DNA from: an uncultured Bacilli bacterium
GTDB lineage: Bacteria > Bacillota_I > Bacilli_A > RF39 > UBA660
Reading direction: 5' to 3'
Assembly (NCBI GenBank): GCA_944359085.1
Contig: CALVSQ010000001.1
Coordinates: forward strand, 1-62,378
DNA: 62,378 nt
Both the position numbers and the translations under genes were made by a program. The notes under the pieces were generated by a model. The model was not told the DNA's origin. It saw nothing but the letters and a program-made list of their open reading frames with translations, and ran no database searches. This document shows, piece after piece, positions 4,691 to 26,815 of this stretch (position 1 is its first letter; each line of letters begins with the position of its first letter).

Positions 4691-4709
4691 ATTAATTCTA
4701 GTTTTATTT

Positions 4710-6066: not shown

Positions 6067-6321
6067 ATGAACACAATCAATATAACAACTGCTAGACAAA
6101 ATTTATTTCAACTAGTATCTGATGTAAACAAAGAATTTAATCTTATTAAAATTATTAATAGTAAAGGTGAGAATGTGGTTTTATTATCTGAAAGTGATTG
6201 GCGAGATATAGAAGAAACAATTTATTTAAATTCTATTTCTGGTTTTGTTGATACAATAGAAGATACTCGTAAAGAAGAAAAATCTAAATGTAGCATCTAC
6301 AATAAAGGTGAAAAATGGTAG
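6067..6321 (+). CDS. type II antitoxin, Phd/YefM family
   Basis: N-terminus MNTINITTARQNLFQLVSDV...VVLLSESDWRDIEETIYL is typical of Phd/YefM. ATG follows GGGTGA. Confidence 0.8.
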   Translation: MNTINITTARQNLFQLVSDVNKEFNLIKIINSKGENVVLLSESDWRDIEETIYLNSISGFVDTIEDTRKEEKSKCSIYNKGEKW

Positions 6322-6400
6322 AATATAAAATAATTTTGCAGATAAGGATAAAAAAATATTAAAACAATTATGGCTTAAAATTAAGGTAAAGTATAATTAA
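6315..6400 (+). pseudogene. frameshifted, truncated RelE/ParE-type toxin remnant
   Basis: ATG overlaps the antitoxin stop (ATGGTAG). It reads MVEYKII, then needs a 1-nt shift at T-run 6334-6337 to continue ADKDKKILKQLWLKIKVKYN-stop. Confidence 0.35.
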
Positions 6401-6414
6401 GTAAGGTGAAATGG

Positions 6415-6888
6415 ATGAATAAAGAATATAAAATTATAAATAAAAATACCTTTGAAATTGTAGAAGATAGTGATTTTGTCGCAGTTGATAGTCAATTAGC
6501 TAAAGCTATATCAATATTAAATAAGAAAGGTTATTATGTTAAAATGTGTTCTAGAGCAAGAATATCTAGACCATTTTTAATAACTGATTTGATTTATAAT
6601 TTACAAAGTAAAAATTTATTAATAATAAATGAAGAAACTAAAAATGTAATAGATCAATTAGATTATGAATCAACTTTAATAATTTTTAAAGAGAAGTATA
6701 ATTTTAACAATTTACCTAAAAATTTTAAATTAATAGATACTGATTCTGAAAGCCATCTGATTTTTAATTTAAAAGCTTTAAAAAATACAAATGGTATAGA
6801 ACTAAAATCATTAATTGAAATTGATGAAGAACATAATAAAAGTATTAAAGATTTAGAAACTTGGGCAAAAAAATTGCCAAATATTTAA
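6415..6888 (+). CDS. hypothetical protein
   Basis: ORF with ATG after an AAGGTGA RBS. No recognisable motif. Confidence 0.5.
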   Translation: MNKEYKIINKNTFEIVEDSDFVAVDSQLAKAISILNKKGYYVKMCSRARISRPFLITDLIYNLQSKNLLIINEETKNVIDQLDYESTLIIFKEKYNFNNLPKNFKLIDTDSESHLIFNLKALKNTNGIELKSLIEIDEEHNKSIKDLETWAKKLPNI

Positions 6889-6903
6889 AAAGGAGGTTTA
6901 TGT

Positions 6904-7137
6904 ATGAATAAAGAATATGTAAGAGTAATGCTCGGTAGCTAGGAAAATTCTCAATTTATAACAGTAAAAAAAGGAACAAGAGTAATGCTATCTGATGGAA
7001 CTGTTATAAGGGCAGGTGTAACCTGTGAAGAATTTAGACAAGAAATGGATAAAAAAATTGATAAAATTTGTAAACAACAAGATTGTCATGAAAGATTACA
7101 AAAAGTTAAAACTAAAGTATTAAGTTTATTTAAATAG
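6904..7137 (+). pseudogene. small ORF interrupted by in-frame TAG (6940-6942)
   Basis: AGGAGG at 6891-6896 lies 7 nt before the ATG. Twelve codons are followed by TAG, then 64 more open codons in the same frame, ending at a terminator hairpin. Confidence 0.3.
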
Positions 7138-7156
7138 TATGTATAATACTATTTTT
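7132..7156 (+). terminator. rho-independent terminator
   Basis: Perfect 9-bp stem AAATAGTAT/ATACTATTT with a 5-nt loop, followed by a T-run. Confidence 0.5.
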
Positions 7157-7169
7157 AAATATTCAGTAT

Positions 7170-7198
7170 TTGACAATACAAGGTAGTTGATATATAAT
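7170..7198 (+). promoter_or_regulatory. sigma-A type promoter of the padR operon
   Basis: TTGACA, 17-nt spacer, TATAAT, about 18 nt upstream of ATG 7216. Confidence 0.55.
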
Positions 7199-7215
7199 TA
7201 TACAAGAGGTGAGAT

Positions 7216-7545
7216 ATGAACACACAATTTAAAAAAGGCGTTTTAGAGTTAATAGTTTTATTAGCTGTCAATAAAAAAGATATGTATGGTTACGAATTAG
7301 TTATGGAAGTATCTAAAGTTGTCGATGTTAATGATGGAACAATTTATCCATTATTAAAAAGATTAACTAATGAAAGATATTTTGAAACATATTTAGTTGA
7401 TTCTACTGAAGGACCTGCAAGAAAATATTATAAAATAACTGTTTTAGGAAAAGAAAGAGTAGAAGAGTTAAGAGATAATTGGAAGTTATTCGCTAATAGT
7501 GTTAATAAATTTATAAAGGAGAGTATGAAAAATGAACAAAAGTAG
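7216..7545 (+). CDS. PadR family transcriptional regulator
   Basis: KGVLELIVLLAV...MYGYEL...GTIYPLLKRLTNERYFE...ARKYYKIT winged-helix pattern. Confidence 0.9.
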   Translation: MNTQFKKGVLELIVLLAVNKKDMYGYELVMEVSKVVDVNDGTIYPLLKRLTNERYFETYLVDSTEGPARKYYKITVLGKERVEELRDNWKLFANSVNKFIKESMKNEQK

Positions 7546-8848
7546 TTTTATTAGTAAATTAAAGAAAAATTTAAAAATATTAGATGAAAATGAAGTTAAA
7601 GATATAGTTGATGAATATAGCGAAATAATTGATGAAAAGATAAAAAATGGTAAAACAGAAGAAGAAGCTATTAAAGATTTTGGTGATGTAAATGAATTAT
7701 GTAAGGAAATTTTAAAAGCTTATAAAATAAATCCTAAATACACTGATGATGATGTTAAATTTGATTTTGAAAATTTTATTAAGAATACTTCTACTAAATT
7801 ATCTAATTTTACAAAAGGTTTAGTTGAAGATGTAAAAAAACATGATGATATTACTTTAGATTTTGTTTTTGAAGTAATTATTAAAGCTATTATTTTGCTA
7901 GTTATTTTTGCTATCATTGGTTTACCTTTTTTAGTAGTATGTAAATTAGGTTATGCAATATTTGAAATAGCATTCTTCCCATTAAATATTTTATTAAGTG
8001 TTTTATGGGGCATGTTGATATGGATTTTATATTTTGTTGTTTGTGTTTTAATTAGTATTAGAATGTTTAAAGATAATATAAAACAGACAAAAAAAACAGT
8101 AAAAAAAAACAAAAAATTAAAAATTGATGAAGAAAAAAAAGAAGAAAATGTAAAAGAAAAAATAACAAAAGAAAATAAAATAAAAAAAGATGAAGTAGTA
8201 AATATATTAAAAGAAATAGCGAAAATATTTATCTTTATATTTATTATATTACCATTGATATTTGTTAATTTAGGTATCGTAATAGCTATATGTTTCACTA
8301 TTTATTATTTAATAATCGGAATTGATTTGTTAGGTATATTATTTATTTTGTTAGGCTTATTAGTATTTTTTGGTTATATTTCTAATCAGTTATCTAATTT
8401 GTTTAGTAAAAAGATTCAATTTAAATTTTATCCATTTTTAATATTTATTATTTTATTAGGAATTGGAATTATATTATCATTTAATACATTTAAAGATATA
8501 AAGTATATTGAATACGAAAATAATGATGTTTTAAAATATAATTATATTATTGAAAATAAAGTTAACTTATATTTAGAAGGCAATTATGACATTATTTATA
8601 ATGAAGATATGAAAGATAATGAATTAGTTATTGAAGTATATTATAATGATGATTTTGTTACAATAGATGAACAACAATCAAAAAATAGAATAGTAATTTT
8701 ATCAACTGATAAAGGATTTTCTAACTGGTACAATGATTGTATAAATAATTTAAAAGATAATAAAATAGTTAATTATAGTAAAGCAAGTGAATTATATTTT
8801 AAAGTATATGGAAATAGACAAACTATTGACGATATTAATATTAAATGA
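7532..8848 (+). CDS. PadR-associated membrane protein (DUF1700-like N-terminus)
   Basis: N-terminus FISKLKKNLKILDENEVKDIVDEYSEIIDEKIKNGKTEEEAIKDFG is typical of DUF1700. Multiple TM helices and a Lys-rich linker. Overlaps the padR stop. Confidence 0.7.
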   Translation: MNKSSFISKLKKNLKILDENEVKDIVDEYSEIIDEKIKNGKTEEEAIKDFGDVNELCKEILKAYKINPKYTDDDVKFDFENFIKNTSTKLSNFTKGLVEDVKKHDDITLDFVFEVIIKAIILLVIFAIIGLPFLVVCKLGYAIFEIAFFPLNILLSVLWGMLIWILYFVVCVLISIRMFKDNIKQTKKTVKKNKKLKIDEEKKEENVKEKITKENKIKKDEVVNILKEIAKIFIFIFIILPLIFVNLGIVIAICFTIYYLIIGIDLLGILFILLGLLVFFGYISNQLSNLFSKKIQFKFYPFLIFIILLGIGIILSFNTFKDIKYIEYENNDVLKYNYIIENKVNLYLEGNYDIIYNEDMKDNELVIEVYYNDDFVTIDEQQSKNRIVILSTDKGFSNWYNDCINNLKDNKIVNYSKASELYFKVYGNRQTIDDINIK

Positions 8849-8907
8849 AAAGACATATAAAATTTATGTCTTTTTTTAATTATTGTTATGATATAATTAT
8901 TATAGTT

Positions 8908-8983
8908 GCTGGAATAGCTTAGTTGGTAGAGCAACGCATTCGTAACGCGTAGGTCGTAGGTTCGAATCCTATTTCCAGCACCA
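8908..8983 (+). tRNA. tRNA-Thr(CGT), CCA encoded
   Basis: Hand-folded: acceptor GCTGGAA/TTCCAGC, loop TTCGTAA, T-arm GTAGG-TTCGAAT-CCTAT. TATGATATAAT box lies 10 nt upstream. Confidence 0.9.
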
Positions 8984-9001
8984 TTAAAAAGGAGTATGAT
9001 T

Positions 9002-10042
9002 ATGAAGTTAAGATGGGACAGAATTATAGCAGTATTTTTAGTTTTTGTTTTATTAATAGGGGTAGGAGTTTATTTTTTATTTTTTAACAAAGAAGAAGAA
9101 AAACAACTAGAAGAACCAGATAAACAAGAACCAGTAGTAGAAAAAAAATTACAAATTTTAGATTTGGAATCTGATACTAGACCAATTGCAGTTATGATAA
9201 ATAATCATAAGACTGCGCAACCATATCAAACAGGACTAAATGATGCTTATTTAGTTTATGAAATTGTTGTTGAAGGCGGTATTACTAGAATGATGGCAGT
9301 ATTTAAAGATCAAGATACTGCAACAATTGGTACAGTAAGAAGTTCTAGACATTATTTTCTAGATTATGTTCAAGAAAATGATGCTATATATACACATTTT
9401 GGATGGAGTGAAAAAGCTCAACAAGATATAAATGACTTAAATATTGATAATGTAAATGGATTAGTTGATAGTGGTTTTTGGCGTGATCAAGAATTAAGAA
9501 ATAATGGAGTTCCACTTGAACATACTGCTTATACCAATATAGAAAATATTTTAGAAGTAGCAGATAAAAGAGGATATGAAACAACTTCAACTAAAGACAC
9601 ATTATTAAATTATAGTGTTGATGAAATAGATTTATCAACAATGGAAGGTGCCATTAAAGCTGATAATGTATTTATTGAATATTCTAGTTATCAAGAAAAT
9701 ACATTCAAATATGATCCAGTTAATAAAGTATATAACAAATATAGTGGAGATACTTTAAGAAAAGATTATGTAACAGGTGAAGCTTTTAAGGCAAAAAATA
9801 TTATTACATACCAAGTAAATAATTATAGTATGGATAGTTATGGAAGACAAGAAATAGATAATATTGGTAGTGGTGAAGGATATTTCATATCAAATGGTTA
9901 CGCAGTGCCAATTACTTGGGAAAAGGAAAGTCCATCTAGTCAAACAATTTATAAATTTTTAGATGGAAAAGAAATAACTGTTAATGATGGAATTACCTAT
10001 ATTCAAATTCAACCAAAAAATAAAACTTTAGAAATTGAATAA
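9002..10042 (+). CDS. DUF3048 (YerB-like) membrane-anchored protein
   Basis: N-terminal TM, then RPIAVMINNHKTAQPYQTGLNDAYLVYEIVVEGGITRMMAVF, characteristic of DUF3048. Confidence 0.8.
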   Translation: MKLRWDRIIAVFLVFVLLIGVGVYFLFFNKEEEKQLEEPDKQEPVVEKKLQILDLESDTRPIAVMINNHKTAQPYQTGLNDAYLVYEIVVEGGITRMMAVFKDQDTATIGTVRSSRHYFLDYVQENDAIYTHFGWSEKAQQDINDLNIDNVNGLVDSGFWRDQELRNNGVPLEHTAYTNIENILEVADKRGYETTSTKDTLLNYSVDEIDLSTMEGAIKADNVFIEYSSYQENTFKYDPVNKVYNKYSGDTLRKDYVTGEAFKAKNIITYQVNNYSMDSYGRQEIDNIGSGEGYFISNGYAVPITWEKESPSSQTIYKFLDGKEITVNDGITYIQIQPKNKTLEIE

Positions 10043-10109
10043 TTTTTAGACAAAAGTTATTCTTTTTTTTATCTAACTATGATATAATGTTATAGTTCGG
10101 GGTGAAAAA

Positions 10110-10601
10110 ATGATACTAGATGAAGAGTATATATCTATAGTTAAACATATATTAAATAATGAAGAATTTTTAAAATTAAAAAATTATGAGCATCATGGAA
10201 TAACACGATTTGATCATTCTTTAAAAGTTTCTTATCAAGCTTACAAATTTGCTAAAAAGCATAATTTAGATTATAAATCAGTTGCTATTGGAGGATTATT
10301 ACATGATTTCTTTCATTCTTCTAATGTTAGTTTAAAAGAAAAATTTATTTCAACTTTTAATCATCCTTTAAAAGCAGAAGTAAATGCTTTAGAAAAATTC
10401 AATGTTAATACCAAAGAAGCTGATATTATAAGAAGCCATATGTTTCCTTTAAATTTAGTTTTACCTAAATATAAAGAAAGTTGGTTAGTAAGTTTATATG
10501 ATAAGAAAGTAGCATTATTAGAATTTAGTTATAAATTAGGTTATAAGTTAAGATATGCATCTAATTTAACTATATTATTGTTATTTAATTTTATAAAATA
10601 G
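10110..10601 (+). CDS. HD-domain phosphohydrolase
   Basis: H...HD pattern: HHGITRFDHSLKV ... GGLLHDFFH. Confidence 0.75.
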   Translation: MILDEEYISIVKHILNNEEFLKLKNYEHHGITRFDHSLKVSYQAYKFAKKHNLDYKSVAIGGLLHDFFHSSNVSLKEKFISTFNHPLKAEVNALEKFNVNTKEADIIRSHMFPLNLVLPKYKESWLVSLYDKKVALLEFSYKLGYKLRYASNLTILLLFNFIK

Positions 10602-10659
10602 ATAGATTTCTATCTTTTTTAATTGTTTTAAATAAAAAAATATATTATAATATTGTTAT

Positions 10660-10736
10660 GTCCTCGTAGCTCAGTAGGATAGAGCGATAGCCTCCTAAGC
10701 TGTAGGTCGTTGGTTCGATTCCAATCGAGGACGCCA
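10660..10736 (+). tRNA. tRNA-Arg(CCT), CCA encoded
   Basis: Hand-folded: acceptor GTCCTCG/CGAGGAC, anticodon loop CTCCTAA, T-arm GTTGG-TTCGATT-CCAAT. Confidence 0.9.
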
Positions 10737-10793
10737 TAAAAAAATTACTTGCTTAAGCAAGTTTTTTATTATATAATTATAAAGGTGTTAGTT

Positions 10794-12053
10794 ATGATAA
10801 AATTAGAAAAAATTATATATAAATTTATTATGCTATTAATGATATTAATTCCTTCATTTAAATTAATATCATATATTTTATATTTAAGCGGTATAATTGA
10901 AAATTCGTATGATTTTAATCATGTTTATGTTTTATGGTTTTCATTACCAATTTTAATTATTTTATATTTAGTTAATCTAATTTATAAAAAAATAACTTAT
11001 GTTGATATTATAATTTATTTTTTAATTATATTAGCAATTATTTCAACTATTTTTGCACAAGATGTAAAAATATCGATATTTGGAGAATTAAATAGAAACG
11101 AAGGATTACTTACACTTTTAAATTATTATTTTTTATTTTTAAATGTAAAAAATATAAATGAAAAAAAATATAAAGAAAAAATAATTAATTTATTTATAAT
11201 ATTAGGCATATTTCAAGTTATATATTCTATATTACAAGTATATACTGATTTCAATTTTATAAAACATTTTTCAAAATCTCATATGGCTATGGGGCTATGT
11301 GGTAATCCAAATTTTTTAGGTAGCTATATGGTTATGTTAGTTTTAATAACTAGTGCCTTATATTTGTTAAAAAATAAAAATATATATTTAATATTATCAT
11401 GCTTATTTGTTTTAGGTTTATATCTAGCAAATTCAACCGGTCCATTTATAGGATTTATTCTTGCTTTAATATTTTTAATAATATTTAAATATAAAAAAAT
11501 CAAATTGATAAATTTATTTAAACTTATTATTTTATTTATACTAATATTTTTTATTAATGATTATTTAGTAAATAAAAAATATATAGAAGTTAGTACTGAT
11601 TATAGAAATTACAATATCAAATATGATATTGTAGATACAACAACTAACATAAAAGAAAATAATAAAGAATATAATTATGGTAGCAGTAGATTTAAATTAT
11701 GGAAAAATTTAGTACCAATAGCTAAAGAGTATTATTTATTTGGAGCAGGATTAGATAATTTAAAAGTTGTTTATCCTAAAGATAATGGACTAGTGTATGA
11801 TAAAGCACATAATGTTTACTATCAAATACTAATAACAAATGGTATATTTGCTTTATCTTTATATTGTATGTTATGCCTAATTATATTTATTAAAGGATTT
11901 AAATTAAAAGATACCTTTTATATTGCTTTATATATTTCGTTTATAGGATATTGTATTCAAGCATTTGGAAATATAAGTGTAATTGATGTAGCTCCTTATT
12001 TCTTTGTAATATTAGGGTTATTATATTCCAAAGATAATGAAATTGTGATATAA
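10794..12053 (+). CDS. O-antigen ligase/polymerase-like (Wzy_C-type) membrane protein
   Basis: About 10 TM helices; periplasmic-loop region with GNPNFLGSY and HNVYYQILITNG resembles the Wzy_C/O-antigen ligase family. Confidence 0.6.
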   Translation: MIKLEKIIYKFIMLLMILIPSFKLISYILYLSGIIENSYDFNHVYVLWFSLPILIILYLVNLIYKKITYVDIIIYFLIILAIISTIFAQDVKISIFGELNRNEGLLTLLNYYFLFLNVKNINEKKYKEKIINLFIILGIFQVIYSILQVYTDFNFIKHFSKSHMAMGLCGNPNFLGSYMVMLVLITSALYLLKNKNIYLILSCLFVLGLYLANSTGPFIGFILALIFLIIFKYKKIKLINLFKLIILFILIFFINDYLVNKKYIEVSTDYRNYNIKYDIVDTTTNIKENNKEYNYGSSRFKLWKNLVPIAKEYYLFGAGLDNLKVVYPKDNGLVYDKAHNVYYQILITNGIFALSLYCMLCLIIFIKGFKLKDTFYIALYISFIGYCIQAFGNISVIDVAPYFFVILGLLYSKDNEIVI

Positions 12054-12062
12054 TTTCATTAT

Positions 12063-12136
12063 GCCGATATAGTTTAGTGGTAAAACAGGTCCTTGGTAAG
12101 GATCAGCGGACAGTTCAATTCTGTCTTTCGGCACCA
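12063..12136 (+). tRNA. tRNA-Thr(GGT), CCA encoded
   Basis: Hand-folded: acceptor GCCGATA/TTTCGGC (one mismatch), anticodon stem GGTCC/GGATC, loop TTGGTAA, T-arm GACAG-TTCAATT-CTGTC. Confidence 0.9.
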
Positions 12137-12228
12137 TAGGGAAATTAGTCGAACTAATCGACTTTAAATATATGAAAGGTTAATTTCGGTTAACCTTTTT
12201 TTGTTTGCTCGAAAGGAGTTGATTAGTT

Positions 12229-12507
12229 ATGCAAATAACAAAGGAAAAGTTAAATATTGACGAAACTTTAAATAAAAAAATTAATAATCTACTTAAGTTT
12301 ACTAGTATTAAGTCAAAGCTTATAAATGGAAATATTATTCATATTTCAAAAACTAATCTTGCTTATATTGAACCGCATAAATTAATTATTAATGAAATAA
12401 CATATTTATTCTTTAATAATTGTGAAAATGTTTATATTAATACTCTTGAACAATCTATATCTTTAAATGAATTGGAAAGACATATTAAAGCAAATAAAAT
12501 AAATTAA
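12229..12507 (+). CDS. small conserved protein, paralog of 16946..17212 (function unknown, recombinase-associated)
   Basis: Gapless alignment with the 88-aa ORF at 16946 gives about 30 identities in 82 positions (NLAYIEPH / NIAYVSPH, YLFFN / YLIFN, HIK). Same position upstream of a serine recombinase. Confidence 0.6.
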   Translation: MQITKEKLNIDETLNKKINNLLKFTSIKSKLINGNIIHISKTNLAYIEPHKLIINEITYLFFNNCENVYINTLEQSISLNELERHIKANKIN

Positions 12508-12642
12508 TATATTTTAAAAACACTTTTAAAATACTATTTAGTTTACTTTTGAAATACTAAATTCACACTATTTAGTTTATTGCAAAAATACTGTCAAGTT
12601 CTATAATATTATAAAATACCTAAATTATGAAAGGAGTTATGA

Positions 12643-14442
<1,800 letters not shown>

Positions 14443-14803
14443 TGTACACAAATATTAAATTTTTTTATAAAATAATGTACATTAAAATCAAAAAAATAAA
14501 ATTTAAATTTGAAAAACGATGTACATTTGGAGGTATTTTTACTATCAAAATTAATCTAATTTGTTATACTTTTGTCTGACAAATAGCCTTTTTTAGGCAT
14601 TTTTATTAAAAATATAGTATGACATACGTCAGACAATAATAAAAATGTCAGACAATAGAAAAGACTACAAACCCTTATAAATAGGGCTAACTCCCCACTG
14701 GGGAGTTGTTTTGTCAGACACACTTATCCTGTTTTTTTGGGTTCCTTAAGTATGTACATAAATTTTAAGAAAAGTTAAAAAATCGTGTACACAAAAATGT
14801 ACA
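14443..14803. repeat. non-coding motif array: 3x TGTACA, 4x TGTC(A/T)GACA, 3x TGTACA
   Basis: TGTACA at 14443, 14476, 14520, 14753, 14786, 14798. TGTCNGACA at 14573, 14627 (CGTCAGACA), 14646, 14712. GC-rich hairpin AACTCCCC-act-GGGGAGTT at 14689-14707. Confidence 0.85.
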
Positions 14804-14908
14804 CTGAAAATTACAAAAAATAATAAATAACATAAAAATTCCTCCCATATAAAAAGATTATCTTAATTCGATAATCATATAATTTAGTTTTATAAATTGC
14901 AATTTGTA

Positions 14909-15502
14909 TTACTTATTTCTTTTTATAAAAACTTCTTTTTTCAAAAATATTATATATAATATAAAACATATTAAATCAGTAATTGCTGAAAATAATTTTG
15001 TATGATTTATGAAAACACTATAAAATAATAAAATAGTTTCAAAAAAAATAAATATAACAGGTAAAACACATAAGATTTTACCATAAATATTATTTTTTCT
15101 ACCACTCCACAATATTGCACCTAAAATACCACATATAATAGCAGGAAATATACTATATAAAAGCCAACCATATAAGCTATTTAATGATAAATCAATCAAT
15201 GAATTAAAAGGCGTATATTCATTAAAATGTAAGTGAAAGGATTTATATATCGTTGTAATTAAAAACATTACAAAAATATAAATCGTAGAATTTATAGTAG
15301 CGGTTTTTCTTTTTTCACTTAATAATACAATTAGTGAAGTGCTAAACATCCAGAATCCAAAAGTTTTTGAACTCCAATAAGAAAATGCCCACAATTCATT
15401 ATCAGGAAATTCGCAAAAAAGTACTACCGATAATCCTGCCATTATACTTAATAAAAAGAGCATTAAATAAGATTTAATATTATCCCTAAATATAATTTTC
15501 AT
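14909..15502 (-). CDS. hypothetical polytopic membrane protein
   Basis: 197 aa with about 6 hydrophobic helices. No recognisable motif. Confidence 0.55.
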   Translation of the reverse strand: MKIIFRDNIKSYLMLFLLSIMAGLSVVLFCEFPDNELWAFSYWSSKTFGFWMFSTSLIVLLSEKRKTATINSTIYIFVMFLITTIYKSFHLHFNEYTPFNSLIDLSLNSLYGWLLYSIFPAIICGILGAILWSGRKNNIYGKILCVLPVIFIFFETILLFYSVFINHTKLFSAITDLICFILYIIFLKKEVFIKRNK

Positions 15503-15566
15503 ATTTTCTCACTTTCAACAAATACTATTTGATAATTATCCATATTATACTTTATTTAAAAATATT

Positions 15567-16061
15567 TTACTTTGTCTCTTTAATATAACTAATGTTATAA
15601 TCATCTAAATCACTTATTTTTATAGTATTATTTTTTAGAGCATTACTGATTGTTTCCTCATATCCATTTTCATATTTGACAATCATATATTCATTTTTAA
15701 TACAACTCCAATAATAAACATAATTATCATCTTCGTAAAAGCTTTCTAAAGCCTCAGCACAATGAAAATCTTTTATATCTTTTGTTTTATCAACAATTTC
15801 TTTAATTTTTAAATCATCATATTCGACAATTTGACAAGTATATTTTGCGTTTTTAAATAAAGTTTTTTCTTCCTTATTAACACAATGATAATGATTAACA
15901 AATAACCCCTTATCTATATAGTTAGTACTACTACCATCATAATATTCTCTAATCTTAAATATAGGACTATTATCAAACAGCAATGCTTGTAAAGTATCAA
16001 GAACTATTATTCCTAATGCTACTCCTAAAATAATAAAAGTAATTTTTAAACCTTTTTTCAT
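15567..16061 (-). CDS. hypothetical membrane-anchored protein
   Basis: Single N-terminal TM then a Cys-containing soluble domain. ATG 16061 follows GGAGG; the track's TTG 16073 is inside the RBS. Confidence 0.55.
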   Translation of the reverse strand: MKKGLKITFIILGVALGIIVLDTLQALLFDNSPIFKIREYYDGSSTNYIDKGLFVNHYHCVNKEEKTLFKNAKYTCQIVEYDDLKIKEIVDKTKDIKDFHCAEALESFYEDDNYVYYWSCIKNEYMIVKYENGYEETISNALKNNTIKISDLDDYNISYIKETK

Positions 16062-16073
16062 ATATTCCTCCAA

Positions 16074-16607
16074 CTAATTCCTTTCACAATCTATTAAATA
16101 TTGTTTTTTTATCTCCTTATTTATTAAAGTTAAAGTAATTAACGATAACATCATTTCTATTATTACAATTTCCATCTGTATGCCATTGATAATAATTGCA
16201 TCATATATTATCAAAATCATTGAAGCAATTATATAAAGATTTCTAATTAATTTTGTATGCCTTTTATTAAAAATAATATTACCCAATATTATTGAACACA
16301 TAAGCATTATAATCCAAAATATAATTATTTTTATATAAATATATTTAACAATTAATGCTGAAAACAAATAGTATGATATTAGCATTGATGTCATAAATGA
16401 AAAGTACAAAATATTAAATTCTTTTCTAGTTTCTGATTTTACTAATAACAATATTCCTATTACTAACCATAACACTATACCAGAAGATATTAATCCAAAA
16501 TAATGAAGAAAATTCATTCCTGCGATTACATCTCCCCATTTAGATAATACTCCAATTACAGCACCAATAATGATTAAAAAGATAATTTTTATAATTTGTT
16601 TTTTCAT
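16074..16607 (-). CDS. hypothetical polytopic membrane protein
   Basis: About 5 TM helices. ATG follows AGAGGTG. Abuts the downstream gene. Confidence 0.55.
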   Translation of the reverse strand: MKKQIIKIIFLIIIGAVIGVLSKWGDVIAGMNFLHYFGLISSGIVLWLVIGILLLVKSETRKEFNILYFSFMTSMLISYYLFSALIVKYIYIKIIIFWIIMLMCSIILGNIIFNKRHTKLIRNLYIIASMILIIYDAIIINGIQMEIVIIEMMLSLITLTLINKEIKKQYLIDCERN

Positions 16608-16783
16608 TGTATACACCTCTACAAATTACCGTTTGTAGTTTCATTGATATACATAATTATATCATATAAAAGATTACTTTAATTTATATTTTTTTTGCTT
16701 TCTTTGATAAATCAAAAATTTTTTAAAAATAATTTTAATATTTTGTAGCATATTCAAAAATTTATACGCATTATCATAAAATA

Positions 16784-16916
16784 TGGTATACTAGTATTAG
16801 AAATTGACCTCAATTGCGATTTCCAAACGTGGTTATCTCACGCACCAGATTGATAGAAAACTCGAACTTTTCGAGTAGTAATAAATATTAACTAGAAGTA
16901 CCGTCTAGTTTTTTTT
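16784..16916 (+). promoter_or_regulatory. extended -10 promoter plus ~110-nt structured leader ending in an intrinsic terminator
   Basis: TGgTATACT at 16784-16792. Hairpin CTCGAA/TTCGAG at 16861-16875. Terminator AACTAGA-N7-TCTAGTT plus T8 at 16890-16916, directly upstream of the small ORF at 16946. Confidence 0.35.
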
Positions 16917-16945
16917 GTTATTATGAGGAAAGTGAGGAGTTTTTA

Positions 16946-20395
<3,450 letters not shown>

Positions 20396-20476: not shown

Positions 20477-20965
20477 TTATCTTTTAATAGGGTTTGAATT
20501 GCTACTTTCTATTTTATCTAAAAAATCTATATTATCAAGTAGAATGTTTCTTTTTAATATCTCTGACATACCATCTATAGTTGCAACAAATCCATTGTTG
20601 ATAATTCCTTGCTGATATTCCTCACTACAAAAAAAATTTAATATATCATCACCAGTTAAATCTTCTTTATTACAAGAACTAGCAACAGCATTAAACCAAA
20701 TTTCTAACTTTCTTCGATTTTCAGAAATTTTAAGATGTCTATCAAGTGGAGTTGCATTCGGTTTTACATTTTCTCCTAGAGCAGTTTCAAGTCGATTATC
20801 AAAATTTCTAATAATAAATTCAAGAATTGATGAAAAATAACTATCATCATATCCTTTATTTTGGTTATAAAATCTTCTTCTATTAACTTCCTCTATCAAT
20901 TCTTTTTTTCCATCAATAGATAAAGAATAGTAGTCCCCCTTGATTTCCCCTAATATTTTAGTCAT
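20477..20965 (-). CDS. hypothetical protein
   Basis: 162-aa ORF with a GGAGGAAAAC RBS. No recognisable motif. Confidence 0.5.
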   Translation of the reverse strand: MTKILGEIKGDYYSLSIDGKKELIEEVNRRRFYNQNKGYDDSYFSSILEFIIRNFDNRLETALGENVKPNATPLDRHLKISENRRKLEIWFNAVASSCNKEDLTGDDILNFFCSEEYQQGIINNGFVATIDGMSEILKRNILLDNIDFLDKIESSNSNPIKR

Positions 20966-21236: not shown

Positions 21237-22028
21237 ATGGATGGATATTTAAATGAACAATATTTTGTTAACTATTTAAACGGCAAAAAAATAAAAGATT
21301 TAAATATAATGTATCTAGATTTAATAGAAAATATTTTTCCAAATATAAACAATGAAGATAAAATTAAAGTTTGGAAAAATCCATTTTCTCAAAAAACTGA
21401 CATATTTATAAAAATAAATAATATTAAGAAAAGAATAAGTATAAAGTCAGGAATAAAAAATTCAGTTCACGTTGAGCCAATTTCAGAATTTATTCATTTT
21501 TTGATTGAAAATAATATTGAAAAAAAATATATAATAAGTTACTTAAAATATCATTATGCTGATGGAACAACTAATGGTAGTGGCATTAAAAGAGTTTCTA
21601 TAAGTGAATATAAAAAAACAAATCAAGAAGAGATAGATTTATTAAATAAAAGGCTAAATAACAATAATTTAATAAGCAAAGCAATTGAAAGATTTGTTTT
21701 AAGAGGTAATAATGACATATATGAAATTGATGCGTTAATATATGGAGTCTCTAACGATTTTATTTTTATAACAAAAAAAGAAATAAAGGAGATAATAAAC
21801 AAAAAAATTAATTTATATTCAACAGGAATTCATTTTGGCCCATTATCTTGTCAACCAATGAATAGATGTTTGAATTACAATCCTAAATATGAAAAAAATA
21901 GATTTTGTGTCCAAATTAAATGGTATAGTTTATTTGATGATATATTAGAGCATAAAAATGATTTGTTAATAAAAAAATGTCAGAACTCTAATCCTTCCGC
22001 TAAGAACGTGGCACAAAAAAACTTGTGA
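21237..22028 (+). CDS. type II restriction endonuclease-like protein (MspI/HpaII-style core), no adjacent methyltransferase
   Basis: Pattern QKTDIFIKI...KRISIKSG (acidic residue, then Lys in beta strands) and a C-terminal GIHF...VQIKW block recalled from MspI-type enzymes. Assignment is from memory only. Confidence 0.4.
   Translation: MDGYLNEQYFVNYLNGKKIKDLNIMYLDLIENIFPNINNEDKIKVWKNPFSQKTDIFIKINNIKKRISIKSGIKNSVHVEPISEFIHFLIENNIEKKYIISYLKYHYADGTTNGSGIKRVSISEYKKTNQEEIDLLNKRLNNNNLISKAIERFVLRGNNDIYEIDALIYGVSNDFIFITKKEIKEIINKKINLYSTGIHFGPLSCQPMNRCLNYNPKYEKNRFCVQIKWYSLFDDILEHKNDLLIKKCQNSNPSAKNVAQKNL
21982..22011 (+). repeat. tRNA-Gly-derived fragment in inverted orientation, embedded in the CDS 3' end
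   Basis: AGAACTCTAATCCTTCCGCTAAGAACGTGG matches the sense strand of tRNA-Gly (complement of 22082-22112) at 28 positions, with one substitution and small indels. Confidence 0.7.
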
Positions 22029-22328: not shown

Positions 22329-22589
22329 ATGGAAACATTAAAAGTAGGATCAAAATCAAATCCTAATTCAGTAGCTGGAGCACTAGCGAATGTATTTAGA
22401 GAAAAAGGAAGTTTAGAAATTCAAGCCATAGGAGCAGGAGCTTTAAACCAAGCCATTAAAGCAATAGCAATTGCAAGAGGATTTGTAGCACCATCTGGGA
22501 AAAACTTAGTATGTATTCCTGCATTTACTGATATAGTAATTGATGGTGAAGAAAGAACTGCAATTAAATTAATTGTTGAATCGCGATAG
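22329..22589 (+). CDS. spoVS: stage V sporulation protein S
   Basis: 86 aa: LKVGSKSNPNSVAGALANVFREKGSLEIQAIGAGALNQAIKAIAIARGF...GEERTAIKLIV, a full-length match to the SpoVS family. Confidence 0.9.
   Translation: METLKVGSKSNPNSVAGALANVFREKGSLEIQAIGAGALNQAIKAIAIARGFVAPSGKNLVCIPAFTDIVIDGEERTAIKLIVESR
22475..22589 (+). repeat. direct repeat copy 1 (spoVS 3' end)
   Basis: 115 nt, 106/115 identical by hand alignment to 26662..26776. Confidence 0.9.
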
Positions 22590-22613
22590 TTAATAATTTA
22601 ACTAATATACTAG

Positions 22614-22633
22614 ACACCAAATGGTGTTTTTTT
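22614..22633 (+). terminator. rho-independent terminator after spoVS
   Basis: ACACCA-aa-TGGTGT followed by T7. Confidence 0.6.
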
Positions 22634-22659
22634 AATTTTTAATAATTTTTGAAAAAGTG

Positions 22660-22688
22660 TTGATTTTTACTCACAAAGGTGATATATT
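22660..22688 (+). promoter_or_regulatory. candidate promoter of the cassette operon
   Basis: TTGATT, 17 nt, TATATT with an upstream TG (TGaTATATT). Confidence 0.4.
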
Positions 22689-22825
22689 TGTGTTGAAAAA
22701 TTGATAAGTTTTATAAGATTTTAACTTTAAAATTTTTATCATTTTTTATATTAACATTTATAGTTTAATTTATGAATATGTAATAATAAATAATTTAGAA
22801 TAAGAGTTTGGGTGTGAGTAACAAT

Positions 22826-23359
22826 ATGAGAAAAATTATTTTTATTGAAGGATTACCAAATGTTGGTAAAACTTATTTGATAAATAAGATAAGAAATCTT
22901 AATATGAAAAATGTATTTATTGTAGATGAAATTATTAATCCTAATGTAAATAATCCTTTTGCTGATGCTGAAGATTTATTTTTAAAAAATGATGAAATGA
23001 AAGTTAGTAAATATAATGAAGGAATTATTATTATTGATAGGGGACCAATTAGTACTTTAGTATATAATCAAGTTGCACACTTGATTGATAATAACTATAA
23101 TTGTAAGTATGTTGAGGAATGGTTTAAACAATTTGTTGATATTTATAATGATGATAATACATTTAATTATTATTTAAATAATCCTTTTGTGTATGAACCA
23201 TCTCTTGATGATAAATCAAATCCTTTTGGTAGTATTGACAATTTAAAATTAACACACTCTTTAATAATTTACAATTTGAAAAAATATGCTAAAAATTTCA
23301 GAGAAATTATTTATAATAAAGATAATTTAATGGAGGTTATTGATGAGATTATTAATTAA
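22826..23359 (+). CDS. P-loop kinase, thymidylate/deoxynucleoside-kinase-like fold
   Basis: IIFIEGLPNVGKTYL (Walker A) and IIIDRGPISTLVYNQ (DRxxxS..Y as in Tmk/dNK). Confidence 0.55.
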   Translation: MRKIIFIEGLPNVGKTYLINKIRNLNMKNVFIVDEIINPNVNNPFADAEDLFLKNDEMKVSKYNEGIIIIDRGPISTLVYNQVAHLIDNNYNCKYVEEWFKQFVDIYNDDNTFNYYLNNPFVYEPSLDDKSNPFGSIDNLKLTHSLIIYNLKKYAKNFREIIYNKDNLMEVIDEIIN

Positions 23360-24605
23360 TTTGTGTGCACATGATGGAATAATAAGCCATTATGCAGGTG
23401 TTGGAACCATTGTAAGAAGGTATATAGAGGCAATTAAATATTTATTAGATAAAAATAATATAAATTATCATTTAAATTTATTCACATTAGAATTTAATAA
23501 AGATAGTATGGGATATAATGAGAATATTTGGAAGGAACATAGTAATTTAGATAATACATTTATTTATATTTGTTCTAACGGAACAAATGGTGAGACTAGC
23601 TTTGGAAATATACATAATTGGAGATTAGCTTCTAAAAAAGTTTCAGAAATTATAAATAAAATTGATTTTAAAAAATATGATTATGTCATAACTTTAGCAA
23701 ACGATACTCCATTTGCTGGATTGCTTGAATTAGTAAAAGAAGAAGAAAATAGCATTAAAGCATGGATTCCTCATTCAACTGGAAAAATATATAATGAAGA
23801 CATGTCATTATCAAAAGAAAATCAAACTAGGAATGAAAGATTAGAATGGGAACAAGATGTAATTGATTATATAAATAAACATGATAGAACATACCTTATT
23901 TCAACAGGAAAATATATAAGGAATCATATTATAGATGAATATGGGTTAAATAAAGATAAAAATATAGATATTATAAATGGTGAATTGTTATTTAGAGATA
24001 ATATTTATGATAAAAATGATAGAATGAAGGAAATATTAAAAGAATTAGAAAAATATAATTCAATTATTTTGTCTTTAGGACGAGCTGAAAAATATAAAAA
24101 TTTAGATAAAACTATGTTGCTTGGTAAAGAGATGGAAATTAAATCTGTTGTTATTACACAACAATATTTTGAAAACCAACCAATTGTAGTGGATTATAAA
24201 AAGTTAGCTTTGGAAACAAATTCTATATTGTATGTCGACGAACCATTTTCTCTTCCACAATATCTTGTTCAAAATTATAGTAAAAAAATGATTATGCTGA
24301 TACCATCAGAAAGAGAAATTTTTGGACTTGTTATAAATGAAATGAGAAGATTTAACAAAGATAATGTTCTTATAGTTGCTAATAAAAGAGGTGGTCTTAT
24401 TGAACAAATAAATGACGGTATTGATGGCATTTTAGTTGATTTAGATAATATTGCTGAGACAAGTACAAAAATTAAAAAATATTTTAATGATGTTGATATT
24501 AAAAAGCTAAATAATGCTGGACAAAAAAGATTAAGTAAAGATTACGATTTAATAAAGAATTTTGATCTATTTTTAAAAAGAATATTAGGTGATGCTTATG
24601 AATAG
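23343..24605 (+). CDS. GT-B fold glycosyltransferase (GT4-like C-terminal half)
   Basis: LGRAEKYKNLD ... LIPSEREIFGLVINEMRR ... KRGGLIEQINDGIDGILVD fits the E-x-FG...E..a.G / GG..E....G..G nucleotide-sugar pocket pattern. ATG follows GGAGG. Confidence 0.6.
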   Translation: MRLLINLCAHDGIISHYAGVGTIVRRYIEAIKYLLDKNNINYHLNLFTLEFNKDSMGYNENIWKEHSNLDNTFIYICSNGTNGETSFGNIHNWRLASKKVSEIINKIDFKKYDYVITLANDTPFAGLLELVKEEENSIKAWIPHSTGKIYNEDMSLSKENQTRNERLEWEQDVIDYINKHDRTYLISTGKYIRNHIIDEYGLNKDKNIDIINGELLFRDNIYDKNDRMKEILKELEKYNSIILSLGRAEKYKNLDKTMLLGKEMEIKSVVITQQYFENQPIVVDYKKLALETNSILYVDEPFSLPQYLVQNYSKKMIMLIPSEREIFGLVINEMRRFNKDNVLIVANKRGGLIEQINDGIDGILVDLDNIAETSTKIKKYFNDVDIKKLNNAGQKRLSKDYDLIKNFDLFLKRILGDAYE

Positions 24606-25974
24606 ATTACTTCCAATAATTGATGAAATGGATACAATAGTTGATTCAAGATGCACATTTAGTGAAACACCTATGGTAAAAAATTTTTTGTTGCTATCAG
24701 AAAAAGATAAATTACAAGTTTTGGCAGATTTAGTTCGGCAGACAATATTATATTCAGAAACTCCCAATCCGGATTTTGAGTTGAAAACCTTAATAGGAGA
24801 TGATTATACTTCTTCTAAAGTATTTATAAATTATGCTAAGTTTTTAGGATTATATAACGATGTTAGACTTGCCATTGGTGGAAGCAGAAAAGGAATAGAT
24901 TTAGATGGATATAATACATCACATTTTGTGGTCGTGGTTAGAGATCTAAACAATAAAGAATATTTAGTTGATACGACTCCTGATATAGGGTATAGCTTTG
25001 GAGAAGTAAAAAGAAAAGAAGATTCAAATATATATACTTATTTAACTTATGTAGATGAAGAATTAGATGAAATAATATATGTTATTAGGAAAAGTATGTA
25101 TGAAATAAGTAAAGGATTATACCGTCAAGGACATATTGAACTATATAATTGCTATAAAAGATTATTTGATAGAGAATGTTTTAATGGACTACTACTAAAA
25201 TTTTATGATATAGTTGATAAAAGTAGTTTTTTTCAATTAAAGAATATATTGAAAAAAGAATATGGTAGTAAAATTAAAAGATTAAAAGAATTAAATATTA
25301 TGAATCAAGAACATAAGAAACGTATTATTAATAGATGGGAAGAACAGCTAAAATTTTTATTATCTCATAGTAAAGATAATAGAGCACAACAAAGAATTGC
25401 TCAACGTATCGTCGGTGAAAGAAAAAATAATTTGACTTTAAATATTAATGGGCAAAATATTAAATTAAATAATATTACTCCAAGATTATTTTGGGAATTA
25501 GGATGTAATGTCGTATTAATTAAGCCATCTTCATTTGCTGTAGGTGTTTCAGCATCTGTTACTGAATATATGATTCCTGATAGAAGCAAAATTATTACTT
25601 CTTATGATGCTAATTTAGGTGCACCTTCAGAACTAGGATTAAAACCTATGAGTTATTTTCATCCACATGGAATGAAATATGAACAACAAATGTTTGGTAT
25701 AAGTAGAATAATTTTAATACAAGATAATGCAAAAAAACTAAATGATAGGAAACATTTTATAAGAGAAAATTTTGTTCAAAAAATTGCGGGACATTATGTC
25801 AATTGGTTTGATGGAAGCAAGATGTTATGGGATCCTAGTTTAAATACTAATATGGTTCATTCAACAGATGATGCTAATGAGACTAGCATACATTTTTTAG
25901 CTGATTATCCTGAATATCAAGTATTTACTAGATATAATTATCCTAATCCAATATTAAGAAAGGAAAAGAAATAA
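24598..25974 (+). CDS. hypothetical ~458-aa protein
   Basis: Translationally overlapped with both neighbours. The N-terminal segment (SHFVVVVRD...EYLVDTTPD) vaguely recalls a papain/transglutaminase-like H...D core without the Cys. Confidence 0.5.
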   Translation: MNRLLPIIDEMDTIVDSRCTFSETPMVKNFLLLSEKDKLQVLADLVRQTILYSETPNPDFELKTLIGDDYTSSKVFINYAKFLGLYNDVRLAIGGSRKGIDLDGYNTSHFVVVVRDLNNKEYLVDTTPDIGYSFGEVKRKEDSNIYTYLTYVDEELDEIIYVIRKSMYEISKGLYRQGHIELYNCYKRLFDRECFNGLLLKFYDIVDKSSFFQLKNILKKEYGSKIKRLKELNIMNQEHKKRIINRWEEQLKFLLSHSKDNRAQQRIAQRIVGERKNNLTLNINGQNIKLNNITPRLFWELGCNVVLIKPSSFAVGVSASVTEYMIPDRSKIITSYDANLGAPSELGLKPMSYFHPHGMKYEQQMFGISRIILIQDNAKKLNDRKHFIRENFVQKIAGHYVNWFDGSKMLWDPSLNTNMVHSTDDANETSIHFLADYPEYQVFTRYNYPNPILRKEKK

Positions 25975-26459
25975 TGAATAAAGAATATGAATATAGTTTA
26001 AAAGTAAAAGATGTAAGTGAATTTATAAAATATTGTAATGATAATAATTATGTAAAAGAAGATGAGTATTTGCAAACAAGAACGCTTTTTAAAAATGGTG
26101 GACCTGTTATGGCTAGAATTACGGAAAATGAAATAAATGGTAAAGTAGAAAAGATACTTAATTTTAAAGATGATAATTTAAATGATAATACTTTGAAAAT
26201 ATCAAGAGAAAGTAAAGATTTAATTGTTACTTCAGAAAATGAAGAATTTGTTGAATCATTACTTCAAATATTAGATTTAAATAATAAGAAAGTTTTAAAA
26301 AGAAAAAGATATGTATTTGTTAAAGAATATGTTAAGTTTGAAATTGATGAATATTTAGAGCCTATTATGAATGTTATAGCTATTGAAGGAATTAAAGAAG
26401 AAGTAGATAAAGTATATGAATCTTTATCCGAACTTATAAATATTCAAAAGGTTGATTAA
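25974..26459 (+). CDS. CYTH-like (triphosphate tunnel metalloenzyme) domain protein
   Basis: N-terminal EYEYSLKV (ExExK-like) and C-terminal KRKRYVFVKEYVKFEIDEYLEP..VIAIEG resemble the CYTH strands. TAATG overlap with the upstream gene. Confidence 0.45.
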   Translation: MNKEYEYSLKVKDVSEFIKYCNDNNYVKEDEYLQTRTLFKNGGPVMARITENEINGKVEKILNFKDDNLNDNTLKISRESKDLIVTSENEEFVESLLQILDLNNKKVLKRKRYVFVKEYVKFEIDEYLEPIMNVIAIEGIKEEVDKVYESLSELINIQKVD

Positions 26460-26480
26460 AAGAATGAATCATTCTTTTTT
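26458..26480 (+). terminator. rho-independent terminator of the cassette operon
   Basis: AAAAGAAT-gaatc-ATTCTTTT with a T-run. Confidence 0.6.
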
Positions 26481-26661
26481 ATTTAAAAGTTTTTTGTTTG
26501 TAGCATAAACATATAGTATATTTTATTTTTAAAATTTAGTTTGAATTATAAAGATAATAATTTAGAGGTATGCGTTTTTACTATCAATTGCATCTTCGTT
26601 GTTTGAAAAATAATAGTAGAAACTAGTCATTCTTAAATTATTACTGCTTCCAAAGTGTAGT

Positions 26662-26776
26662 AAGAGGATTTGTAGCACCATCAGGGAAAAACTTAGTATG
26701 TATTCCTGCATTTACTGACATAGTAATTGATGGTGAAGAAAGAACTGCAATTAAATTAATCGTAGAGGCTAAATAG
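26662..26776 (+). pseudogene. spoVS 3' fragment (codons 50-86 only), direct repeat copy 2
   Basis: Encodes RGFVAPSGKNLVCIPAFTDIVIDGEERTAIKLIVEAK-stop with no 5' part. Followed by its own terminator GGCT-aaat-AGCC plus T8 (26767-26786). Confidence 0.85.
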
Positions 26777-26815
26777 CCTTTTTTTTATATTCTCATATAA
26801 TAATATGGTGATTAT

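Follow-up and report, generated by a model that had tools for sequence, protein, structure and literature searches.

A horizontally mobile four-gene cassette of predicted kinase, glycosyltransferase, NDK-like and CYTH proteins in uncultured gut bacteria

Several small-glycoside pathways, including those of sucrose-phosphate synthase/phosphatase, of MshA/MshA2 in mycothiol synthesis, and of GpgS/GpgP, combine a kinase with a retaining glycosyltransferase of the GT-B fold that is linked or fused to a phosphohydrolase. This paper describes a comparable cassette of four adjacent genes, located at positions 22826-26459 of a contig of 62,378 nucleotides (CALVSQ010000001.1, assembly GCA_944359085.1; this whole stretch is referred to as the window) from an uncultured Bacilli bacterium. 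The genes encode a P-loop kinase (K), a glycosyltransferase (GT), a protein of 458 amino acids (X), and a CYTH/triphosphate-tunnel-metalloenzyme (TTM) protein (C). The best profile matches of GT include MshA, BshA, and GlgM-type enzymes. The cassette differs from the small-glycoside pathways in that its kinase is Tmk/dNK-like and its phosphohydrolase is a CYTH protein rather than a member of HAD or His_Phos, and it moreover adds a protein with domains resembling nucleoside-diphosphate kinase (NDK) and arylamine N-acetyltransferase (NAT), and is mobile.

Besides these pathways, a P-loop nucleoside or nucleotide kinase is combined with a TTM in the uridine-kinase-CYTH fusions (Arabidopsis TTM1/TTM2; PDB 7z67), and 7z67 is among the structural matches of C. 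However, the cassette genes are separate and K is not uridine-kinase-like by Pfam, whereas TTM1/2 come without a glycosyltransferase or an NDK-like partner. Similarly, the glucosylation of hydroxymethylcytosine in phage T4 employs a dNMP-kinase-like enzyme, an NDK, a GT-B enzyme, and an NTP phosphohydrolase, but the cassette lacks a hydroxymethylase, is not phage-borne, and encodes a GT that is unrelated to the alpha/beta-glucosyltransferases of T4. With respect to mobility, two of the loci described below (L014 and L019) are recombinase elements that split a host gene, as do skin, SPbeta in spsM, and gin in gerE (PMC5595907, PMC4191935), whereas the cassette in the window comes without a recombinase and rebuilds its target gene, spoVS, by means of a 3' mimic.

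Searches of the cassette against Pfam, NCBIfam, PADLOC, and PHROGs returned no family for X or C and weak P-loop/Tmk matches for K, and literature searches on CYTH proteins in relation to glycosyltransferases, anti-phage systems, NDK, conflict systems, and thymidylate kinase found no description of the gene set. An earlier first-pass annotation of this DNA, made by a model from the letters alone, had recognized no named pathway or defence system in the cassette, and profile, structure, PADLOC, and literature searches likewise place it nowhere. Known superfamilies account for the individual parts; what is new is their combination, the architecture of X, and the mobile context. The data presented here show that it is a horizontally mobile, co-transcribed unit of four cytoplasmic enzymes that work together. 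Its product is addressed more tentatively.

Gene layout, conserved linkage and encoded proteins

The six-frame list of open reading frames (ORFs) and the junction sequences define four overlapping or abutting genes on the forward strand, i.e., K (22826-23359, 177 aa), GT (23343-24605, 420 aa), X (24598-25974, 458 aa), and C (25974-26459, 161 aa). K and GT overlap by 17 nt, with GGAGG at 6 nt 5' of the GT ATG, GT and X overlap by 8 nt (ATGAATAG), and X and C share one base within TAATG; these junctions are exactly those listed in the first-pass annotation. A purine-rich ribosome-binding site precedes all four starts. Because overlaps of 17, 8, and 4 nt are seen again in orthologous operons that are only 34-50% identical, the translational coupling is a conserved feature that is not attributable to chance. 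The G+C content of the window is approximately 23% throughout.

A locus scan with one genome per species yielded 34 loci, all of them in metagenome-assembled genomes (MAGs) of uncultured gut Bacilli, 'Tenericutes' or Clostridia. The organism of the window is 98-99% identical to Candidatus Faecisoma merdavium and to a Bacilli MAG, a group that belongs to the genome-reduced GTDB order RF39 (PMC8035907) and is filed by NCBI under Mycoplasmatota. K, GT, X, and C occur together in approximately 26 of the 34 loci, with X identities down to 28% (tblastn), and the linkage is therefore not confined to a single genome, an outcome that the first-pass annotation had named as one that would refute its reading. 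Gene order varies among the loci (K-GT-C-X in L028 and L031, X..K-GT-C in L024, a divergent arrangement in L036), and in L033 C is found 4 kb away from the other cassette genes. All-against-all clustering of the neighbouring ORFs revealed that only K, GT, X, and C are universal. Recurrent extras include His_Phos phosphatases (7 loci), GT2 enzymes (5), GNAT proteins (4), M23-domain proteins (4), and NUDIX proteins (4), and occasional neighbours encode an NT5C 5'-nucleotidase, an HD protein, an MBL/Apyc1-like protein, an NAD-dependent epimerase/dehydratase, or a Listeria-Bacteroides-repeat surface protein.

Two gene fusions were encountered, each in one assembly: GT and C form a single ORF of 571 aa in a 'Mollicutes' MAG (L031, 991-2706), and a GNAT acetyltransferase and K form a single ORF of 344 aa in L024 (8246-9280). 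Moreover, a distant branch (L035, L037, L038 at ~3000-16600, and L039) has an X of 27-33% identity without K, GT, and C; here, X is located between two UvrD-like helicases, followed by a His_Phos phosphatase, a GT4 with a weak match to Pfam GT4-conflict, a His_Phos-GT2 fusion, and another GT2. In this branch a histidine phosphatase takes the place of the CYTH protein. As X is again linked to GT4 and GT2 enzymes in these loci, its link with glycosyltransferases is ancient, and the GT-C and His_Phos-GT2 fusions together imply that a phosphohydrolase, either CYTH or His_Phos, always accompanies the glycosyltransferase and is in some cases fused to it.

The assignments of K, GT, and C that were made from the letters alone (Tmk/dNK-like kinase, GT-B glycosyltransferase, and CYTH-like protein) were borne out by profile and structure comparisons. 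K matches phrog_761 (thymidylate kinase) in PHROGs at 3.5e-9, and Pfam detects AAA_28 in 17 of 17 K orthologues, Thymidylate_kin in 9, and dNK in 2 of them; AAA_28 (Pfam: 'AAA domain') is taken by us to include the NadR ribosylnicotinamide-kinase class. The Walker A motif EGLPxxGKT and the sequence IIDRGPISTLxY, which is typical of thymidylate and deoxynucleoside kinases, are present, and G14, K15, D71, and S76 are invariant, in agreement with a P-loop and a DR(Y/F)xxS-type motif for binding of nucleoside monophosphates (NMPs). All of these matches stay below the Pfam and NCBIfam family thresholds (Thymidylate_kin best E 3e-4 among the 9 orthologues; TIGR00041 17 bits versus 83 required). K has P-loop matches only in sequence and profile searches of the PDB, and lacks a PPK2 match in Pfam. 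On this basis K is placed in the Tmk/dNK/NadR-RNK class of NMP or nucleoside kinases. It is not the housekeeping enzyme, because the host encodes a separate canonical tmk (47580-48179; Pfam 1e-30).

Of the four genes, GT shows the strongest conservation; it encodes a divergent, GT4-type retaining enzyme of the GT-B fold that exceeds the gathering cut-off of Pfam Glycos_transf_1 (1.7e-8; 34.6 versus 26.4 bits). The EX7E motif is preserved, E325 without exception and E333 nearly so, and the best profile matches of GT among solved structures are the GT4 enzymes PDB 7mi0, PglA, and BshA.

For C, an AlphaFold2 (AF2) model with a mean per-residue confidence (pLDDT) of 93.7, built on a comparatively shallow alignment, displays the eight-stranded beta-barrel tunnel fold. 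The best Foldseek match is SaTTM (7nsd; E 2.3e-8, TM 0.71), and other matches include Pfu 1yem, AtTTM3, and class IV adenylyl cyclases (E 2e-8 to 1e-5, TM 0.6-0.7), while the family profile finds the archaeal CYTH protein 2dc4 in the PDB at 1e-3. Ten tunnel residues (E4, E6, R48, K65, E79, R110, R112, E123, D125, and E138) are invariant in 27 sequences with identities down to 36%, including all of the basic, phosphate-binding residues (R48, K65, R110, R112) and the acidic, metal-binding residues (E79, E123, D125, E138).

X belongs to a rare family, with 58 clusters at 90% identity and 127 representatives among 1.84 billion (1.84e9), that has one architecture throughout, no Pfam model, and no name in its sources. 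The first-pass annotation had called it a protein of unknown type, which holds as far as Pfam is concerned, but the AF2 model (pLDDT 92.8, predicted TM score 0.91) contains a NAT/papain-like N-domain, a long helical linker, and an NDK-like C-domain. Sequence and profile searches of the PDB with X gave nothing significant, and Foldseek gave nothing below 1e-3, with a list that consists of arylamine N-acetyltransferases for the N-domain and approximately 45 NDK chains for the C-domain. The same two folds were retrieved from the independent viral library BFVD, including a Tupanvirus NDK at E 0.013.

The N-domain (~30-150) matches NATs at E 4e-3 to 1.4e-2, and its residues T71, H109, and D125 are arranged in the geometry of the papain/NAT triad. 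It departs from the Cys-His-Asp catalytic triad of arylamine N-acetyltransferases and transglutaminase/papain-like enzymes, since the Cys position, at the N-terminus of a helix, is taken by Thr71 in at least 90% of the members and never by Cys; most members carry H109, and at least 90% carry D125. In view of the lost Cys, this domain probably binds the acceptor or docks GT instead of acting as a thiol enzyme.

The C-domain (~300-440) matches NDK chains in the PDB with probabilities of 0.97-1.0, TM scores to the target of 0.5-0.63, and modest E-values of 0.02-0.1. It resembles NDK/Nme in fold and in the order of strands and helices, and it carries 'NVVLIKPSS', with the 'IKP' Lys after strand 1, and 'TN(L/M)VHSTDD' at the places of NDK 'TFIAIKPDG' and 'N-x-x-H-G-S-D', the latter being N-x-x-H-S-T-D in X. 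Among 29 sequences with identities down to 24%, N418 is invariant and K309, H421, and D424 are present in at least 90%, and E428, R296, K385, and R389 are also conserved; K309, N418, and H421 were equated with NDK K12, N115, and H118 by motif and strand order only. Unlike NDK/Nme, the C-domain shares its polypeptide with a NAT-like domain and a helical linker, and its sequence is not significantly similar to NDK. Because tests at the sequence level fail, the model-based assignment is worded as NDK-like rather than NDK.

Mobility and the insertion site in spoVS

Upstream of K, the window contains an intact spoVS gene (22329-22589, forward strand; Pfam SpoVS 5e-38), of which the last ~117 nt (from ~22473, codon 47) arrived with the transferred unit and now stand where the original 3' end was. 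The displaced original 3' end (codons 47-86, ..VEAK*) was recovered by tblastn and alignment at 26654-26776 on the forward strand, where it marks the right end of the unit. The 3' part of spoVS is present as a 105-nt direct repeat, the left copy of which (22475-22579, forward strand) is 96% identical to the right copy within the remnant (26662-26766). The terminator scan detected a terminator-like hairpin 3' of the rebuilt spoVS (22612-22629, forward strand), as well as the native spoVS terminator (26764-26781, forward strand), which overlaps the stop codon of the remnant.

The insertion at window positions 22473-26776 is found in Candidatus F. merdavium as well (L009, 2961-7345). An empty site was sought with a pattern able to match the unoccupied site only, and was found on a metagenome contig (L042, reverse strand, 54-388) in which spoVS is joined directly to the downstream genes and the cassette is absent. 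Over 7.2 kb downstream, this contig shares 99.6% identity with L009, and it represents the same species; the end that is joined directly to spoVS in it corresponds to the remnant in the window. The insertion thus occurred at about codon 47 of spoVS and brought the cassette along with a mimic of the spoVS 3' end, resulting in a duplication of ~107 nt.

Comparison of the window with L009 gave identities of 86% for the 5' part of spoVS, 95.7% for its 3' copy, 97.5% for the promoter region, 99.1% for the four genes (32 differences in 3634 nt), 90% for the spoVS remnant, and 80-85% for the flanking genes. This profile implies that a unit of ~4.2 kb (~22473-26653) has been exchanged recently between species. 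The reading of the locus as an inserted, accessory cassette, which the first-pass annotation had put forward, is strengthened by the 105-nt repeats, the empty site, and the 99.1% identity next to diverged flanks. The pair of occupied and empty sites offers a clean natural experiment, even without an assigned function, and a 99% identical copy in two species is suited to the study of gene flow in organisms that cannot be cultured.

In the window spoVS is intact and the 4.2-kb unit holds no recombinase; elsewhere, large serine recombinases are found within 8 kb of the cassette in 6 of ~30 distinct loci. For example, a class-B penicillin-binding protein gene (PBP_dimer, Transpeptidase, PASTA) upstream of mraY is cleanly split in L014 (4190-11784), at 2-107 / 104-298 of the Transpeptidase profile, by a 5.6-kb element that consists of a 48-aa ORF, K-GT-X-C, and a large serine recombinase of 528 aa. 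In L019 (1511-6472) a DD-carboxypeptidase gene (Peptidase_S11, split at 9-197 / 207-237 of the profile) is interrupted by a serine recombinase, fragments of GT and X, and an intact C. Decay is also apparent in L032 (4218-7378), where an SRP54 N-domain runs in frame into the C-terminal 118 residues of X, with C and a recombinase downstream of the fusion, and in L034, L040, and L041, where a shortened X is found beside C, which is intact in L034 and L041 and shortened in L040. In L010 (6328-7152, reverse strand) a 274-aa transposase-like ORF or insertion sequence interrupts GT in a cassette that is otherwise intact and adjoins a serine recombinase and phage- or plasmid-like genes. Being cargo of integrative elements points to an accessory role that is related to conflict or to the niche.

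A phage- or plasmid-borne origin of the cassette was considered and rejected, as no X homologues were found in IMG/VR viral contigs, GenBank phages, or PLSDB plasmids.

Proposed function and rival explanations

Catalytic residues are kept in all four proteins, i.e., the P-loop and DRxxxS of K, the EX7E of GT, K309/N418/H421 of X, and the tunnel residues of C. We tentatively propose that the cassette makes or processes a glycosylated and phosphorylated small molecule, most likely a nucleotide, by a linear pathway from kinase to glycosyltransferase to CYTH enzyme, although we consider even this account, which we favour, to be rather doubtful. In such a pathway, K would carry out the first phosphorylation, turning a nucleoside acceptor into an NMP or an NMP into an NDP, X would raise the acceptor to a triphosphate by means of its NDK-like domain and a phospho-histidine relay at His421, the GT4 enzyme would move a sugar from an NDP-sugar onto the phosphorylated acceptor, and C would strip off tri- or pyrophosphate. 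The logic of kinase, glycosyltransferase, and phosphatase is that of the sucrose-phosphate, trehalose-phosphate, glucosyl-phosphoglycerate, and mycothiol pathways. In favour of it are the linkage that is kept despite changes in gene order and the glycosyltransferase-phosphohydrolase fusions, while the NT5C, NUDIX, HD, and MBL/Apyc1-like neighbours and the GNAT-K fusion lend it a nucleotide flavour. The product could serve as an antiviral or antimicrobial nucleotide analogue, as a signal, or as a precursor for modification of the envelope or of nucleic acids.

Several observations weigh against this proposal. The NDK assignment of X depends on the modelled fold and two short motifs, with Foldseek E-values of ~0.01-0.02; a Pfam scan of 29 X members, one by one, gave neither an NDK nor a NAT model, and alignment of the X family with an NDK alignment by hhalign reached a probability of 0.8%, with only the 'IKP' stretch aligned. 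Pfam likewise gave no CYTH match for C at E <= 1, and C reads ExExS in place of the canonical ExExK, Ser8 being nearly invariant and the nearby K10 not conserved. The substrate of K could be other than a nucleotide, and its fold class also holds shikimate, gluconate, and polyphosphate kinases (PMC12995831). An assembly error could account for the GT-C fusion, which comes from one MAG only. Finally, the cassette comes without a transporter, regulator, sensor, or immunity gene, and the accessory GT2, GNAT, and epimerase genes would fit a pathway for envelope glycans equally well.

The latter point leads to the main rival explanation, likewise judged unlikely by us, in which the cassette recycles the donor nucleotide for a mobile envelope glycosylation. 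The GT4 enzyme, sometimes together with a GT2, would glycosylate a precursor that faces the cytoplasm (teichoic acid, lipoglycan, or surface protein), and K (NMP to NDP), X (NDP to NTP), and C (removal of pyrophosphate or tripolyphosphate) would regenerate the donor nucleotide and relieve product inhibition, resembling lysogenic conversion in changing a phage receptor or antigen. Known receptor-modifying glycosyltransferases, such as gtrABC and TarP, are cargo of integrative elements, as the cassette is. GT as the most conserved component, the invariable linkage of X to glycosyltransferases, and the extras (GT2 in 5 loci, GNAT in 4, epimerase/dehydratase, and the Listeria-Bacteroides-repeat surface protein) are in line with this explanation, and recycling would be useful in the genome-reduced order RF39 (PMC8035907). 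However, the cassette lacks a sugar-1-phosphate nucleotidyltransferase, a flippase, and a membrane protein, the host already has a tmk, three housekeeping-type enzymes for one GT are uneconomical, and the glycosyltransferase-phosphohydrolase fusions suggest a phosphatase that works on the product of GT rather than on pyrophosphate. Still less probable, in our estimate, is a new system of anti-phage defence or conflict that targets the nucleotide pool, with the kinase, NDK-like, and CYTH proteins depleting, converting, or generating a nucleotide (a signal or chain terminator) upon infection and the GT4 enzyme modifying molecules of the invader as effector; GT4 domains have been predicted to be effectors in conflicts (PMC8195603). 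The cassette is patchy, mobile, and often decaying, with remnants of shortened X and C in L019, L032, L034, L040, and L041; it has an empty site, a recent transfer between species, and serine recombinases nearby, and a minority of its neighbours are defence genes (type I methyltransferase, AbiLi, AriA, AAA_21). Against this, PADLOC-DB 2.0 gave best E-values of 0.0014 for K (P-loop only) and 0.017 for C and no match for GT and X, a sensor, nuclease, or toxic effector is missing, neighbours are mostly housekeeping genes, promoters of the orthologues look constitutive and sigma-A-like, and the cassette is absent from the phage, plasmid, and IMG/VR collections. Defence is, moreover, as much a biological role as a mechanism, and as such is compatible with a pathway towards a glycosylated nucleotide.

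Kinases, GT-B glycosyltransferases, and GNATs are the classical types of antibiotic-modifying enzymes, and a nucleoside-like or aminoglycoside-like toxin might be phosphorylated, glycosylated, and in some loci acetylated by the mobile, accessory cassette, a scheme to which the GNAT-K fusion of L024 would lend itself; NDK-like and CYTH partners are without precedent in resistance, however, and the NCBIfam search found no similarity to known resistance enzymes, which makes inactivation of a xenobiotic or antibiotic very unlikely. The first-pass annotation had invoked the logic of T4 DNA hypermodification. In a scheme of this kind, K would phosphorylate a modified dNMP, X would make the dNTP, C would exclude the canonical dNTP, and GT would glycosylate the modified base in DNA. 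Four of the five T4 functions do have formal analogues in the cassette, T4 employing the dNMP kinase gp1, an NDK, the GT-B-fold alpha/beta-glucosyltransferases, and the dCTPase gp56. The defining base-modifying enzyme is nevertheless lacking, as no homologue of a hydroxymethylase or thymidylate synthase turned up at any of the 34 loci among the genes that are conserved or recur near the cassette; there is no DNA-binding domain, the cassette is not found in phages, and the best matches of GT, which is unlike the T4 enzymes, are GT4s acting on small molecules or lipid-linked acceptors, so that this logic is highly improbable. An equally slight chance is given to a function in polyphosphate or energy-phosphate metabolism, with K as a polyphosphate-dependent kinase of the PPK3/PPK2 type, X as an NDK, and C as a tri- or polyphosphatase. 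Polyphosphate kinases of the Tmk superfamily exist in operons with the histidine phosphatase SixA and CHAD (PMC12995831), His_Phos genes recur near the cassette, and structurally C comes closest to the Sulfolobus TTM. PPK3-type operons are defined by catalytic and regulatory Tmk paralogues with PPX and CHAD (PMC12995831), but the loci hold a single kinase, without PPX, CHAD, or a second, regulatory Tmk paralogue at any locus, K has no PPK2 match in Pfam, and the invariably linked and most conserved GT4 enzyme is left unexplained.

If the proposed synthesis or processing of a glycosylated, phosphorylated small molecule holds, the cassette would introduce a new enzyme family in which one protein combines an NDK-fold phosphotransferase with a Cys-less NAT/papain-like domain. 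It would also show CYTH tunnel enzymes in a new use alongside glycosyltransferases, and would represent a new type of small mobile cargo carried by genome-reduced gut bacteria that are uncultured, namely RF39 and its relatives. A glycosylated nucleotide as product would represent new chemistry of possible antiviral or antimicrobial interest. That such a nucleotide acts as an antimetabolite (antiviral or antibacterial) or as an immune signal, and thereby constitutes a new mechanism of defence or conflict that serine-recombinase elements disseminate through gut Bacilli and Clostridia, is conceivable, with the chances well on the low side.

Expression signals and other features of the window

A candidate promoter for the cassette is located at 22660-22688 on the forward strand (TTGATT-17-TATATT with an upstream TG, a 9/12 match). 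The first-pass annotation had taken it as the single promoter of the operon; the site exists, but sigma-70-like matches in the AT-rich stretch are not above chance (53 found versus 43.5 +/- 7.3 expected from shuffled sequence), and it is not established as a promoter. In the orthologues, a conserved extended -10 element (TGnTATAAT) at 40-50 nt upstream of K points to what is probably ordinary transcription of the sigma-A type. Downstream of C, a probable terminator (26460-26482, forward strand) consists of a weak, AT-rich hairpin of 5-7 bp and a T-run. The single terminator that had been annotated at 26458-26480 is thus reflected in a hairpin and T-run, which are kept with a longer stem in L009, but the terminator scan misses the hairpin, which falls short of the scan's G+C criterion, and the terminator is not established.

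Sporulation-specific expression of the cassette was also considered, and was set aside as the orthologue promoters are of the extended -10, sigma-A-like type and spore-coat neighbours occur in one context only. Sporulation is, to our knowledge, not known in the RF39 hosts.

A leader of ~70 nt is conserved upstream of K in L004 (~6150-6235), L014 (~5400-5487), and L015 (~6150-6236). It contains an inverted repeat, ATAAACTACAATTGAGTAGTTTAT, immediately 5' of the extended -10 element TGCTATAAT. It could represent an operator or a recombinase site.

Upstream of the cassette, the window holds a mobile island (12649-20395) with two large serine recombinases (12649-14442 and 17266-19167) and a Mob_Pre relaxase (19148-20395). 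A comparison aimed at delimiting this island showed that the upstream part of L009 is without a counterpart in the window. Between the island and spoVS, two ORFs without a Pfam family encode proteins of 162 aa (20477-20965, reverse strand) and 263 aa (21237-22028, forward strand), the latter of which is probably chromosomal, because L009 has it in front of spoVS too, with 82% identity.

Two further genes had been brought into connection with the cassette in the first-pass annotation, as a second Tmk-like gene (47589) and a second TTM-fold gene (VTC, 60012), both in accessory blocks. The former is an ordinary tmk that is unrelated to the cassette; this canonical thymidylate kinase gene overlaps a gene of the uracil-DNA-glycosylase superfamily (47580-48747) and looks like a housekeeping gene. 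The latter does encode a VTC-domain protein, but belongs to a cluster that is unrelated to the cassette. This cluster (57164-61330) comprises a CotH kinase with lamin-tail domains (951 aa), the VTC-domain protein (235 aa), and a DUF4956 protein.

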